From Escherichia coli (GTDB taxonomy: Bacteria; Pseudomonadota; Gammaproteobacteria; Enterobacterales; Enterobacteriaceae): a stretch of DNA of 64,000 nt. Location: the NCBI RefSeq assembly GCF_036507355.1, contig NZ_AP027877.1. One strand, given 5' to 3'. Shown here piece after piece: positions 29,101 through 35,808 of this stretch. How positions within the stretch are numbered: position 1 is the stretch's first letter; every line of letters starts with the position of its first letter. A program made the position numbers.

Positions 29101-32100
29101 ATTACTCGCCGTTCGGTAAACATCTTCGATAAAACTGGCGCGGAAGTAAAACGTCAGGATATCGAATCCAATCTGCAATATGACGCGGGCGATAAAGGTA
29201 TTTACCGTCACTACATGCAGAAAGAGATCTACGAACAGCCGAACGCGATCAAAAACACCCTTACCGGGCGCATCAGCCACGGTCAGGTTGATTTAAGCGA
29301 GCTGGGACCGAACGCCGACGAACTGCTGTCGAAGGTTGAGCATATTCAGATCCTCGCCTGTGGTACTTCTTATAACTCCGGTATGGTTTCCCGTTACTGG
29401 TTTGAATCGCTGGCAGGTATTCCGTGCGACGTCGAAATCGCCTCTGAATTCCGCTATCGCAAATCTGCCGTGCGTCGTAACAGCCTGATGATCACCTTGT
29501 CACAGTCTGGCGAAACCGCAGATACCCTGGCGGGCCTGCGTCTGTCGAAAGAGCTGGGTTACCTTGGTTCACTGGCAATCTGTAACGTTCCGGGTTCTTC
29601 GCTGGTACGCGAATCCGATCTGGCGCTGATGACCAACGCGGGTACGGAAATCGGCGTGGCATCCACTAAAGCATTCACCACTCAGTTAACTGTGCTGTTG
29701 ATGCTGGTGGCGAAGCTGTCTCGCCTGAAAGGTCTGGATGCCTCCATTGAACATGACATTGTGCATGGTCTGCAGGCGCTGCCGAGCCGTATTGAGCAGA
29801 TGCTGTCTCAGGACAAACGCATTGAAGCTCTGGCAGAAGATTTCTCTGACAAACATCACGCGCTGTTCCTGGGCCGTGGCGATCAGTACCCAATCGCGCT
29901 GGAAGGCGCATTGAAGCTGAAAGAGATCTCTTATATTCACGCTGAAGCCTACGCTGCAGGTGAACTGAAACACGGTCCGCTGGCGCTGATTGACGCCGAT
30001 ATGCCGGTTATCGTTGTTGCGCCGAACAACGAATTGCTGGAAAAACTGAAATCCAACATTGAAGAAGTTCGCGCGCGTGGCGGCCAATTGTATGTCTTCG
30101 CCGATCAGGATGCGGGTTTTGTAAGTAGAGATAACATGCACATCATCGAGATGCCGCATGTGGAAGAGGTGATTGCACCGATTTTCTACACCGTTCCGCT
30201 GCAGCTACTGGCTTACCACGTCGCGCTGATCAAAGGCACCGACGTTGACCAGCCGCGTAACCTGGCAAAATCGGTAACGGTTGAGTAATATTCTTCATTC
30301 ATCAAATAAGGGCTGCCATCTGGTGGCCCTTTTCATCAATAACGTCAATAATTGTTTTATCTATAAACTCAGCAATATGAATTTATTCTGATTTTTTATT
30401 AATGTCTGATTACATACTTGAAGTATTATCGGTTTAATAATATTTAAATAATAAATTTATATTTAAATTCAAATAATTAATATTATTTTTAGCTAATTCT
30501 ATTTCGTTGATGTAGTATGTCTGCGAATCATAAATATACTTATTAATTTAAGTGATGATTCAGAATAAAGGATATATCATATCAATGGAGTTTCTATGAA
30601 GCGTAATATTATTGGCGGTGCATTCACGCTGGCATCTTTAATGCTGGCTGGGCATGCACTCGCAGAGGATGGTGTTGTTCACTTTGTTGGTGAAATAGTC
30701 GATAGTACTTGCGAAGTGACCTCAGATACCGCCGATCAAACTGTCCCACTCGGTAAGGTCAGCAAAAGCGCATTTTCCGGTGTAGGAAGTCTGGCATCAC
30801 CACAACAATTTAGTATTAAACTGGAAAAATGTCCGGCAACCTATACTCAGGCAGCCGTTCGTTTTGATGGTACCGAAGCGCCTGGCGGAGACGGTGACCT
30901 GAAAGTAGGTACACCAATTACTGCGAGCGATCCGGGTGATTATACTGGCACTGGCGCTGCAATAGTTGCTACTGGCGTAGGTATCCGTATTTTTAACCAG
31001 TCCGATAATTCTCAGGTTAAACTCTATAACGACTCCGCCTATACCGCTATCGAAGCTGATGGCACCGCTGAAATGAAGTTTATCGCACGCTATGTTGCAA
31101 CAAATGCGACCGTAACGGCGGGAACGGCGAACGCTGATTCACAATTTACCATCGAATATAAGAAATAATTTATCAAGGGCCTTTTTATTCAGTTGGCTTT
31201 GGCCAGGGAGTCGTTATGTCCAGAAAAAGTTGTTTAATTAGGCTCTTTAAAACAACCATTTGGAACAAATTATTTATCGCTGTTATATTAAGTCTGTTTT
31301 TAGTTCAGCCAGTATTAACTTATGCAGGTGTTGTCATTGGTGGTACACGAGTTGTTTACTTGAGTAATAACTCAGATAAATCTATTTCTGTATTTAACAA
31401 GGAAGAAAAAATTCCTTATCACATCCAGGTATGGGTGGATCCTTTTAATAAAGATGATAAAAGCAAAGCGCCATTTACAGTTATCCCTCCGGTTTCACGG
31501 TTAGAGCCTGCGCAAGAAAAAGTATTACGCATTATTCACACCAAAGGTATGTCATTACCTGAAGATCGTGAGTCTGTTTTTTGGCTGAATATTAAAAATA
31601 TTCCCCCCTCTGCGAGCAACAAAGCCGATAACTCGCTGGAAATCGCTGTCAAAACGCGAATCAAATTGTTCTGGCGACCGGCAAGCATTCGCCTGATTCC
31701 CGAAGATGCCGCACCGAAAGTGAAGTGGCATCGAGAAGGGCGAAACCTGATTGCAGAGAATCCCAACCCGATTCATATCAGCGTGATGGATGTCATAGTG
31801 GATGGCCATGATGTGCCTCTCAATATGATCCGTCCTTTTGAAACGCTCACCTTACCCCTGCCTGCTAACTCTGCGGGCAGCCAAATGATTTGGCGATTTA
31901 TTAATGATTACGGTGCAGTAAGCGAACCGATAAAAATGCCGCTGTAAGCATTGCATAAGGATAGGCGTATTATGGTTACGACCAGAATTGCGGTTGGGCT
32001 GACGGCGGGGACGTTTCTGATTTTCTCGCAAAGCCTTATGGCCGAGGTCAGTGTGTTCAATCCGGCGCTACTGGAAATTGACCATCAATCAGGGGTAGAT

Positions 32101-35100: not shown

Positions 35101-35808
35101 GATGGCTGATGTTTATATTCGTGGCGATATTACAGCACCGCAAAGTTGTGAAATTAATAATTTACAGCCAGTTTATTTTGATTTTAAAGAAATACCAGCT
35201 GCGGATTTTTCATCTGTTGCGGGGAGTGCGGTAACAACACATAAAATCACTAAAACGGTCACTATTGAGTGTGAAAACCTGGGGATACTGAATACCGATG
35301 ATATCAGTACGTCTTTTTATGCTACTGAACCCAATACGGATAACTCGATGGTCGTAACATCAAACCCTAACGTGGGGATAAAAATTTACGACAAAAATAA
35401 TAACGAAATCAAAGTGAACGGTGGCGAACTGCCGACTGATATGGGGAAATCAACGGTCTACGGAGAGAAATCCGGGAGTGTCACGTTTTCTGCTGTTCCC
35501 GCAAGCCTTACTGGCGCTCGCCCCGCTCCAGGATCATTTACCGCGACTGCAACGATAACGATTGAGATAGTACGCTAACCGAATTGACAACGGCGCTCCT
35601 CACGCCGTTGTCATCTTAAGCATTTTCCCTGGCGCATGTTTACGCATCATGACAAAAAAATGACATCACTTATCTTTTTGTTCATTCACAAAAATCAATG
35701 GATTACGCAATAGTTTTGTTTTGTCATAAAACTGTCATAAACCTTACATATAACTGTCACCTGTTTGTCCTATTTTGCTTCTCGTAGCCAACAAACAATG
35801 CTTTATGA

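Follow-up and report, generated by a model that had tools for sequence, protein, structure and literature searches.

The segment between glmS and pstS in the window (the whole stretch of 64,000 nucleotides analysed here, from Escherichia coli contig NZ_AP027877.1) is an intact lpfABCD-O113 operon, also known as the lpf2-site operon or E. coli Stg, and belongs to the gamma-1 clade; it is already known, and is ordinary apart from its rare allele. We hold with high confidence the explanation as a whole, namely an lpfO113-type operon for chaperone-usher assembly, present as a rare allele and subject to recombination through its flanks, and at the level of sequence nothing contradicts the lpfO113-type fimbrial call. 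ORF calling places the operon between the glmS stop at 30288 and the pstS start at 35827, the glmS-pstS intergenic location of lpfO113/lpf2-site operons. As the original prediction had proposed for this interval, four intact, co-directional genes lie on the plus strand, encoding a pilin, a PapD-like chaperone, an usher and a two-domain adhesin, and both their Pfam domains and their ORF lengths agree with the sizes given there (190, 243, about 840 and 357 aa). This structure is far beyond chance, and its gene order lpfA-B-C-D, with neither lpfD' nor lpfE, is that of the lpfO113 operon. The features of the locus are as follows.

30291-35721, plus strand: accessory segment ("island"), 5.4 kb, missing from K-12
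30289-30595, plus strand: AT-rich lpfA leader, 307 bp, 23.5% GC versus 53% in glmS
30308-30331, plus strand: hairpin followed by a T-run, likely glmS terminator, island-borne and replacing the K-12 terminator
30596-31168, plus strand: lpfA, major pilin, 190 aa (Pfam Fimbrial, E=8e-24)
31216-31947, plus strand: lpfB, periplasmic PapD-like chaperone, 243 aa (PapD_N, 1e-39; PapD_C, 2e-10)
31972-34494, plus strand: lpfC, outer-membrane usher, 840 aa from ATG (PapC_N, 5e-40; Usher, 1e-186; PapC_C, 8e-18)
34505-35578, plus strand: lpfD, two-domain tip adhesin, 357 aa (Pfam Fimbrial at residues 204-354 only, 3e-22)
35585-35613, plus strand: hairpin 7 nt past the lpfD stop, likely operon terminator, with a weak T-tract
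35648-35665, no strand assigned: invariant motif CATGACAAAAA(A/G)ATGACA, within the right end of the island
35721-35760, plus strand: pstS Pho boxes, part of the backbone and right-hand boundary of the island

In K-12, glmS adjoins pstS across a 313-bp spacer and the operon is absent, which confirms the earlier reading of the strain as non-K-12. Specifically, homology to the K-12 spacer stops at 30290, 2 nt past the glmS stop, and restarts at 35722 (blastn of the spacer against the window), from which position onward the window is the same as K-12, and the island takes the place of 206 bp of that spacer. The GC content of the island is 44.1%, versus 52-53% in the flanking genes. No further plus-strand ORF of at least 60 aa lies between lpfD and pstS, and Rfam and tRNA scans gave no match at the locus.

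For all four proteins NCBI already lists the exact sequence, named lpfA/B/C/D-O113, and the NCBI naming rules recognise them as LpfA, LpfB, LpfC and LpfD-O113. The operon of strain TB06052 is 99.8-99.9% identical to that of the window in DNA, with proteins 99.6-100% identical and RefSeq/PGAP names lpfA-D-O113. In particular, LpfA, whose signal peptide ends after HALA and before EDG, scores 376.9 bits against NCBIfam NF011817 (cut-off 203), and its exact sequence is found in NCBI as LpfA-O113 on 364 contigs. LpfB scores 507.4 bits against NF011818 (cut-off 317) and aligns to FimC (E=3e-40), keeping the equivalents of Arg8 and Lys112 (the R in GGTRVVY and the K in TRIKLFWRP) without a long F1-G1 insertion; it is a two-domain chaperone with the anchoring residues typical of a classical chaperone-usher system. 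LpfC likewise has the N-terminal, pore and C-terminal domains of a classical usher, and the exact 840-aa protein is found on 450 contigs. Its ATG is the RefSeq start for the 100%-identical usher of TB06052, and an alternative in-frame TTG start at 31951 gives 847 aa. LpfD, listed in its exact form as LpfD-O113, consists roughly of an N-terminal receptor-binding part (about residues 24-200) and a C-terminal pilin domain (residues 204-354), and its residues 48-355 align over both domains with the LpfD structure solved for strain LF82 (PDB 5AFO, E=2e-26). LpfA and LpfD are the pilin subunit and the two-domain tip adhesin of a classical chaperone-usher operon. LpfD was also modelled with AlphaFold on an alignment of six sequences; at a mean pLDDT of 47 the model could not confirm the lectin fold and was excluded from fold searching.

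If assembly follows the established chaperone-usher pathway, Sec would export LpfA and LpfD, and LpfB would capture them in the periplasm through donor-strand complementation, its conserved Arg and Lys anchoring the C-terminus of the subunit. The LpfC usher would then begin the fibre with LpfD at the tip and polymerise LpfA below it by donor-strand exchange; the operon encodes no adaptor or terminator subunit. Adherence to host epithelium or matrix would be the expected role of the resulting fibre; under laboratory conditions, many chaperone-usher operons of E. coli stay cryptic. An O104:H4 lpfA2 mutant adheres more poorly to polarised Caco-2 cells (PMC4636846), and the adherence phenotypes of lpf2-type mutants are weak or condition-dependent (PMC4636846, PMC5357955).

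The strongly AT-rich leader of about 300 bp that had been noted ahead of the operon was recovered, and the 40-mer quoted from it maps to 30451-30490. This leader presumably holds the promoter and the 5' UTR. In a six-allele alignment its best-kept parts are an AT core (about 30433-30493), with 83-90% identity to the LY180, XH992 and MFDS alleles and 62% to that of Pseudocitrobacter, and the proximal leader (about 30496-30595), which together with the start shows 80-82% and 84% identity, respectively; the distal leader retains only 65-69% identity to the diverged E. coli alleles and 46% to Pseudocitrobacter. A consensus promoter scan returned 12 matches versus 13.1 expected from shuffles, i.e., no enrichment. 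The best H-NS motif in the leader (8/10, equalled by 728 of 1000 shuffles) and the best Fur motif (13/19, equalled by 35% of shuffles) are both at chance level. Neither the leader palindrome as RNA (z=-0.95) nor a stem-loop between lpfA and lpfB (z=-0.4) is significant. Judged by AT-rich composition alone, silencing of the lpf leader by H-NS is plausible, and for the O157 lpf1 operon control by H-NS and Ler is documented (cited in PMC5357955).

Two hairpins stand out at the borders of the operon. The one at 30308-30331 has a 10-bp stem of -16.5 kcal/mol (z=-4.1; none of 200 shuffles as stable), and in Pseudocitrobacter and other alleles its pairing is preserved through compensatory changes (GCTGCC/GGTGGC versus GCTCC/GGAGC). 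The one 3' of lpfD has an 11-bp stem of -18.8 kcal/mol (z=-5.5; again 0/200 shuffles as stable), and its arms change in a compensatory manner across alleles (GGCG/CGCC, GGTG/CACC, GATTG/CATC). A consensus terminator scan gave 9 matches versus 5.0 expected (sd 2.3), not clearly above shuffles, and missed this second hairpin. Transcription would probably start in the conserved part of the leader, downstream of the island-borne glmS terminator, and probably end at the conserved hairpin 3' of lpfD.

The operon is present in 1,991 of 5,426 complete E. coli genomes (~37%), in all of them on the chromosome, which, together with the existing RefSeq names, agrees with its original description as a known but lineage-variable adhesin locus. 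It is also found in the laboratory strain W/LY180, regarded as "safe" (PMC3032704), and operons at the glmS-pstS site are classed as gamma-1 and are common in pathogens and commensals alike (PMC3032704); carrying the operon does not mark a strain as pathogenic. The window-type allele (at least 95% identity) occurs in 17 of the 5,426 genomes, and about 1,970 carry other alleles. It shares ~88% DNA identity with the common lpfA2-1 type (86-90% per gene versus LY180), falling to 77% with LY180 in the leader and standing at 86% between the window lpfA and the lpfA2-1 representative. Against the lpfA2-1 primers the window shows 6+3 mismatches and LY180 3+0; against the allele-specific lpfA2-2 primers the window shows 10+10 mismatches, and O157 Sakai is a perfect match. 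Compared with these two types by identity and primer match, the window lpfA is not lpfA2-2 and is probably not lpfA2-1. The locus is of little importance beyond strain description, marking a non-K-12 strain and adding one adhesin to its repertoire. Typing PCRs for lpfA2-1 and lpfA2-2 would probably fail to detect the window allele (~0.3% of complete genomes), a point of interest to users of lpfA variants as epidemiological markers.

Synonymous divergence of the operon is high, with dS of 0.45-0.69 versus the common allele of LY180 and up to 1.37 versus two further alleles, and dS in the flanking glmS and pstS is 0.06-0.14. Across this large divergence dN/dS stays at 0.03-0.11, which shows long-term purifying selection on the operon. 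Judged from these comparisons of sequence, the window allele is rare, old and under purifying selection. Divergence among alleles at the glmS-pstS site reaches that of orthologues from other genera. The allele of E. coli MFDS1022581 is shared nearly identically with Pseudocitrobacter vendiensis (lpfC 96.9%, lpfD 99.0%), far above the ~86% identity of glmS and pstS, which supports allele exchange through the flanks. Such divergence combined with near-identical sharing fits the understood recombination-driven diversity of adhesins. Homologous recombination via the conserved glmS and pstS flanks is the most likely route by which such lpf alleles move in.

A more far-reaching version of this exchange, which we entertain only tentatively and consider rather doubtful as a package, takes glmS-pstS as a cassette-exchange locus and joins to it an imported window allele with another receptor and a regulatory element, CATGACAAAAARATGACA, at 35648-35665. 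Whole fimbrial alleles with between-genus divergence may be swapped among Enterobacteriaceae via the conserved flanks; the window allele would come from an unsampled donor and would encode a pilin and adhesin variant that lies outside lpfA2-1/2-2 PCR typing and binds another receptor; and the motif, brought in by the island and lying beside the pstS Pho boxes, could link the expression of pstS or lpf to a regulator, for example PhoB. This motif is identical in 6/6 lpfO113/stg-type trailers, including that of Pseudocitrobacter, while the surrounding sequence varies, and it is present neither in the O157 trailer nor in the K-12 spacer. Read on the minus strand, it agrees with the Pho-box consensus at 14/18 positions, and with four mismatches is too weak for a three-mismatch search. 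A strict search of that kind (at most 3 mismatches) found the known pstS boxes alone, where three overlapping matches to CTGTCATAWAWCTGTCAY lie versus 0.27 expected by chance. As to the donor of the window allele, none was found in a cross-species scan, which, as its patterns must match exactly, recovered just three loci.

An operon under purifying selection is also hard to reconcile with a remnant, decayed or cryptic, from which fimbriae are no longer made. Broken copies are indeed frequent among its relatives: the chaperone gene carries a frameshift in Sakai, the operon is interrupted by IS elements in several genomes and Shigella flexneri holds only partial copies, and a strong promoter is not recognisable in the window leader. 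In the window, none of the four ORFs is truncated and their lengths equal those in RefSeq, the low dN/dS over large synonymous divergence argues against decay, and conservation extends to the ribosome-binding regions, terminators and proximal leader. We therefore consider a decayed or cryptic remnant unlikely, and an intact lpfO113-type operon remains the preferred reading.

The check for phase-variation switches that had been suggested alongside the fimbrial call found no invertible switch in the leader. A perfect 10-nt inverted repeat (30382-30391 and 30560-30569) does flank 168 bp of the leader, as would suit phase-variable expression from a fim-switch-like invertible promoter element, but a repeat of this length is unremarkable in DNA of 23% GC. 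Its second arm is not kept in the LY180, XH992, MFDS and Pseudocitrobacter leaders and carries a mismatch in TB06052, the leaders examined are all colinear with none inverted, and no recombinase gene lies in or beside the island. With the repeat unconserved, inverted copies absent and the recombinase missing, the leader lacks the marks of a fim-type invertible switch, and such control is very improbable.

Equally little weight falls on arrival of the segment as a mobile island at attTn7 through a Tn7-like or integrase-mediated event. Its left junction, 2 nt past the glmS stop, does fall within the Tn7 insertion region, and the TnsD-binding end of glmS is intact in the window (1 difference in 60 nt). 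Against such an origin, no transposase or integrase gene, terminal inverted repeat or tRNA was found at the island, and the sole direct repeat there, an 18-nt pair of 83% identity, is not kept in other alleles. Additionally, the operon occupies the same site in Pseudocitrobacter and lies directly after glmS in Salmonella, which fits an old locus subject to loss or replacement, not recent transposition.

That the window operon is the O157:H7-type lpf2 (O island 154), with which it shares its chromosomal site, both backbone junctions exactly and, in parts of the literature, the name lpf2, is scarcely credible, since Sakai lpf2 has five genes with a duplicated lpfD and a frameshifted chaperone against four genes in the window, its proteins are only 55% (A), ~60-68% (B, frameshifted), 63% (C) and 39-42% (D) identical to those of the window, the lpfA2-2 primers separate the two, and distant-mode DNA searches found no O157-type lpfD. 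Hence the earlier link to O157 lpf2 holds for the site and its junctions and fails at the level of operon type, with five genes and 39-63% identity in pilin, usher and adhesins; the site alone is common to both.

Comparison with known systems places the lpfO113-type operon of the window as follows. Type 1 fimbriae (fimAICDFGH) share its assembly mechanism and clade, with LpfC scoring 674 bits against the FimD model and the adhesin distantly related to FimH (60 bits); the window, unlike that system, has no FimF/G-like adaptors, fimB/fimE recombinases or fimS switch. The lpf1 operon of Salmonella and E. coli (lpfABCDE) is a gamma-1 system with a two-domain LpfD adhesin, as in the window, but includes lpfE, which the window lacks, and occupies another chromosomal site. 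All four window proteins fall below the curated Salmonella Lpf cut-offs (in bits, LpfA 89.6/221, LpfB 137.8/360, LpfC 738.9/1271 and LpfD 138/412). O157:H7 lpf2 (ECs_4665-4670 in Sakai) belongs to the same fimbrial clade, with a 700-bp leader versus 307 bp in the window.

Salmonella enterica stgABCD consists of four genes directly downstream of glmS, as in the window, although in Salmonella the operon is separated from pstS by other genes. Salmonella StgA and StgB score 345 and 444 bits against NF011817 and NF011818, models that the window pilin and chaperone pass as well. Protein identity between the two operons is 67.5% for A, 65% for B, 67% for C and 38% for D. The window adhesin stays below the StgD model NF011819 (216.5 bits versus a cut-off of 493; Salmonella StgD, 841 bits), which suggests that its receptor specificity is probably unlike that of Salmonella StgD. 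By these scores and the shared position after glmS, the closest Salmonella relative of the window operon is stg, not lpf. The originally proposed name lpf therefore stands insofar as RefSeq uses lpf-O113 names and fails where Salmonella Lpf models are concerned, the pilin and chaperone instead clearing the same models as StgA and StgB; the label "lpf" is historical. Correspondingly, adhesiomeR labels these E. coli genes stgABCD (PMC11184843).

Closest of all is the lpfO113 operon itself, with which the window shares gene order, protein lengths (190, 243, 840 and 357 aa), PGAP names and the glmS-pstS site. This operon corresponds to allele lpfA2-1 in the Torres typing scheme and to "lpfA2-D2" in E. 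coli W. Its reference description, in LEE-negative STEC O113:H21, is credited to Doughty et al. (2002, Infect Immun 70:6761; cited via PMC4343011). Lymberopoulos et al. (2006, J Bacteriol) reportedly described the "Stg" fimbriae in avian pathogenic E. coli. Relative to the LY180/W representative, the window proteins are 92% (LpfA), 90% (LpfB), 96% (LpfC) and 93% (LpfD) identical.

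The four fimbrial genes between glmS and pstS are co-directional and preceded by an AT-rich leader, and ORF calls, Pfam matches and leader GC content confirm this arrangement in every detail as it was originally predicted. Specifically, the locus comprises the following features.

28459-30288, glmS, left flank of the operon
30289-30595, leader, 307 bp, 23.5% GC
30308-30331, island-borne hairpin, likely glmS terminator, -16.5 kcal/mol, z=-4.1
30596-31168, plus strand, ORF 1 (pilin, LpfA), 190 aa, Pfam Fimbrial
31216-31947, plus strand, ORF 2 (chaperone, LpfB), 243 aa, Pfam PapD_N and PapD_C
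31951-34494, plus strand, ORF 3 (usher, LpfC), 847 aa from TTG, Pfam PapC_N, Usher and PapC_C
34505-35578, plus strand, ORF 4 (adhesin, LpfD), 357 aa, Pfam Fimbrial at residues 204-354 only
35585-35613, hairpin directly after lpfD, -18.8 kcal/mol, z=-5.5
35648-35665, 18-nt motif CATGACAAAAA(A/G)ATGACA, after the putative lpfD terminator and ahead of the pstS Pho boxes
35827-36867, pstS, right flank of the operon

The usher is 840 aa long if the ATG at 31972 is its start, as RefSeq has it for the 100%-identical usher of E. coli TB06052, and this agrees with the predicted length of about 840 aa. The chaperone is FimC-like and keeps both subunit-anchoring residues, and LpfD aligns with the solved LpfD structure 5AFO across both domains (E=2e-26). 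The GC content of the leader (23.5%) is far lower than that of glmS (53%) or of the whole island (44%), and the 40-mer quoted from it in the original prediction corresponds to 30451-30490.

Homology between the window and K-12 stops at 30290, 2 bases past the glmS stop codon, and restarts at 35722, with the first of the Pho boxes of pstS. A segment of 5,431 bp thus stands in place of 206 bp of the 313-bp K-12 glmS-pstS spacer. The K-12 glmS terminator falls within the 206 bp replaced. The stem of the island-borne hairpin at 30308-30331 is maintained in other alleles through compensatory substitutions, and covariation of the same kind is seen in the hairpin at 35585-35613, which likely acts as the operon terminator. 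Additionally, the 18-nt motif is invariant in six of six lpfO113/stg-type trailers from two genera, Pseudocitrobacter included, while the sequence around it varies among the six, and it is absent from the O157 trailer and the K-12 spacer. Read on the minus strand, it shows a weak Pho-box likeness, matching at 14/18 positions and failing a 3-mismatch threshold.

The distal part of the leader is less conserved across alleles than its proximal part and its AT core (about 30433-30493). Promoter consensus matches are not enriched at the locus, and H-NS and Fur motif matches in the leader occur at chance level. Silencing of the operon by H-NS would be a reasonable inference, because of the AT-rich composition and the precedent of O157 lpf1 (as cited in PMC5357955). 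The check for a phase-variation switch returned a sole candidate inverted repeat, which is not conserved across alleles.

The operon encodes an intact usher, chaperone, pilin and adhesin and no adaptor or terminator subunits. By the established chaperone-usher mechanism, the subunits would be exported by Sec and stabilised by LpfB through donor-strand complementation, the fibre would begin at the LpfC usher with LpfD as its tip, and LpfA would polymerise next via donor-strand exchange. This is textbook chaperone-usher assembly, and adhesion is the expected function; the phenotypes reported for lpf2-type operons are modest and condition-dependent (PMC4636846, PMC5357955).

When the region was compared by megablast with 5,426 complete E. 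coli genomes, the glmS/pstS flanks were detected in essentially all of them and the full operon in 1,968-1,991, chromosomal every time and at a single site per genome, with matching loci annotated as lpfA-O113, lpfB-O113, lpfC-O113 and lpfD-O113. TB06052 comes closest, with 99.8-99.9% identity, and the four exact window proteins are already public under lpf-O113 names (LpfA on 364 contigs, LpfB on 5, LpfC on 450 and LpfD on 96). With its exact proteins deposited and its genes annotated in genomes, the locus is known and routinely annotated. The finding is real and the original prediction was essentially right; what is added here is the precise type (lpfO113/Stg-like, not O157 lpf2), how rare and how old the allele is, and evidence for between-genus allele exchange at the site. 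As a separate observation, NZ_CP026085.1, a record labelled 'strain DH5alpha' (a K-12 derivative), carries the full lpfO113 operon at glmS-pstS, unlike K-12 MG1655, and is probably either mislabelled or no K-12 derivative.

Operons with at least 95% identity to that of the window occur in only 17 of the 5,426 genomes, and 1,974 further genomes carry alleles 80-90% identical to it. Compared with the common allele, represented by the E. coli W derivative LY180, DNA identity is 86% for lpfA, 86% for lpfB, 89% for lpfC and 90% for lpfD, and protein identity is 92%, 90%, 96% and 93%, respectively. O104:H4, whose lpfA2 has been typed lpfA2-1 (PMC4636846), groups with this common type by lpfD identity, and two more E. 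coli types, represented by XH992 and MFDS1022581, have adhesins 86% and 81% identical to that of the window. Measured against the common allele, synonymous divergence of the window is 0.45-0.69 in the operon, as against 0.06-0.14 in the adjoining glmS and pstS, with dN/dS at 0.03-0.11. The operon alleles are thus old and under functional constraint, whereas the backbone that holds them is young. Mismatches of the lpfA2-1 primers (PMC5962669 supplement) number 6+3 for the window, some of them at 3' ends, and 3+0 for LY180; typing PCR would probably score the window allele negative for both lpfA2-1 and lpfA2-2.

Scanning one genome for each bacterial species by pattern recovered three related loci. 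Pseudocitrobacter vendiensis has the same operon of four genes in its glmS-pstS interval, Escherichia whittamii has a partial copy, and an Escherichia sp. has a five-gene copy of the O157 type. The Pseudocitrobacter operon has 77-85% DNA identity to that of the window, a range equal to that among E. coli alleles. Between MFDS1022581 and P. vendiensis, identity is 92.7% in lpfB, 96.9% in lpfC and 99.0% in lpfD, as against about 86% in glmS and pstS, 86% in lpfA and 78% in the leader, a sign that part of the operon was recently exchanged between the two genera. Such high lpfC and lpfD identity within flanks of about 86% shows that allele segments move between genera at this locus, so the window allele most likely came in by recombination across the conserved flanks; the scan of one genome per species yielded no donor for it.

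The whole window corresponds to K-12 3,942,129-3,883,730 in reverse orientation, and two further accessory segments lie in it. At 40395-47824, between phoU and yieH, a 7.4-kb segment takes the place of K-12 bglGFBH-yieLK-cbrCB; of 5,426 genomes, 627 have at least 80% of it, none with an identity of at least 99%, and its ORFs are annotated in the closest genomes (98.4%) as 'type III effector' and 'pentapeptide repeat-containing protein'. A 2.6-kb insertion relative to K-12, at 56917-59537 between the tnaC upstream region and mnmE, holds a single ORF.

40811-43318, ORF, 835 aa, no Pfam match
43785-44972, minus strand, ORF, 395 aa, pentapeptide repeats
45255-46982, ORF, 575 aa
46897-47682, ORF, 261 aa
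57211-59388, plus strand, ORF, 725 aa, ShET2 enterotoxin N-terminal domain (Pfam Toxin_15, E=1e-47)

The stretch between these insertions, 47825-56916 (yieH-tnaC), is 96.0% identical to K-12 as against 97.7-99.0% for other shared stretches, which suggests a recombined segment. The pstA-pstB spacer (about 38800-38893) is shorter than in K-12 by about 90 bp, the extra K-12 sequence being GC-rich and resembling a repeat element. The window also includes the 5' end of the 16S rRNA gene rrsC (1-322, minus strand), the chromosomal replication origin oriC (16152-16383, 99.6% identical to K-12 oriC and at the position that falls between mnmG and mioC in K-12) and the enterobacterial sRNA STnc410 (Rfam RF02060, 188 bits; 26686-26843, minus strand, between atpC and glmU).

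As originally stated, O157 carries lpf2 at this junction: the fimbrial operon of O157:H7 Sakai lies between glmS and pstS, and both of its junctions are exactly those of the window operon. Distinct from the window operon with its four genes, however, Sakai lpf2 has five, with lpfD duplicated, a frameshifted chaperone and a 700-bp leader. Protein identity between the two is 55% for the pilin, about 60-68% for the chaperone fragments, 63% for the usher and 39-42% for the adhesins, and the lpfA2-2 primers (PMC3417533), which match Sakai perfectly with the expected 297-bp product, have 10+10 mismatches to the window. Gene number, low protein identity and these primer mismatches rule out O157 lpf2, and the window operon is of the four-gene lpfO113 type. 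In the Sakai locus (L004), the chaperone gene at 8620-9100 on the minus strand is broken across two reading frames, and RefSeq records one fragment only, as pseudogene 'stgB'.

Among NCBI curated models, the window pilin passes NF011817 (377 bits, cut-off 203) and the chaperone NF011818 (507 bits, cut-off 317), the adhesin scores best against StgD, below its cut-off (216 bits, cut-off 493), and all Salmonella Lpf models score the window proteins below cut-off by wide margins. Among the relatives of the pilin in Salmonella, the most widespread one, at 68% identity, belongs to a four-gene operon directly downstream of glmS, whose pilin and chaperone match NF011817 and NF011818 and whose adhesin passes StgD with 841 bits. 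Relative to Salmonella stg, protein identity is 65-68% for LpfA, LpfB and LpfC and 38% for LpfD. In position, architecture, pilin and chaperone, the window operon is therefore what corresponds to stg in E. coli. The fimbrial call thus stands and 'lpf' becomes a historical label, stg being closer, an outcome that the original prediction had itself foreseen. The E. coli W genome paper places lpfA2-D2 among the gamma-1 fimbriae and describes them as common to pathogenic and commensal strains (PMC3032704), and adhesiomeR, in agreement with the stg reading, names these E. coli genes stgABCD (PMC11184843).
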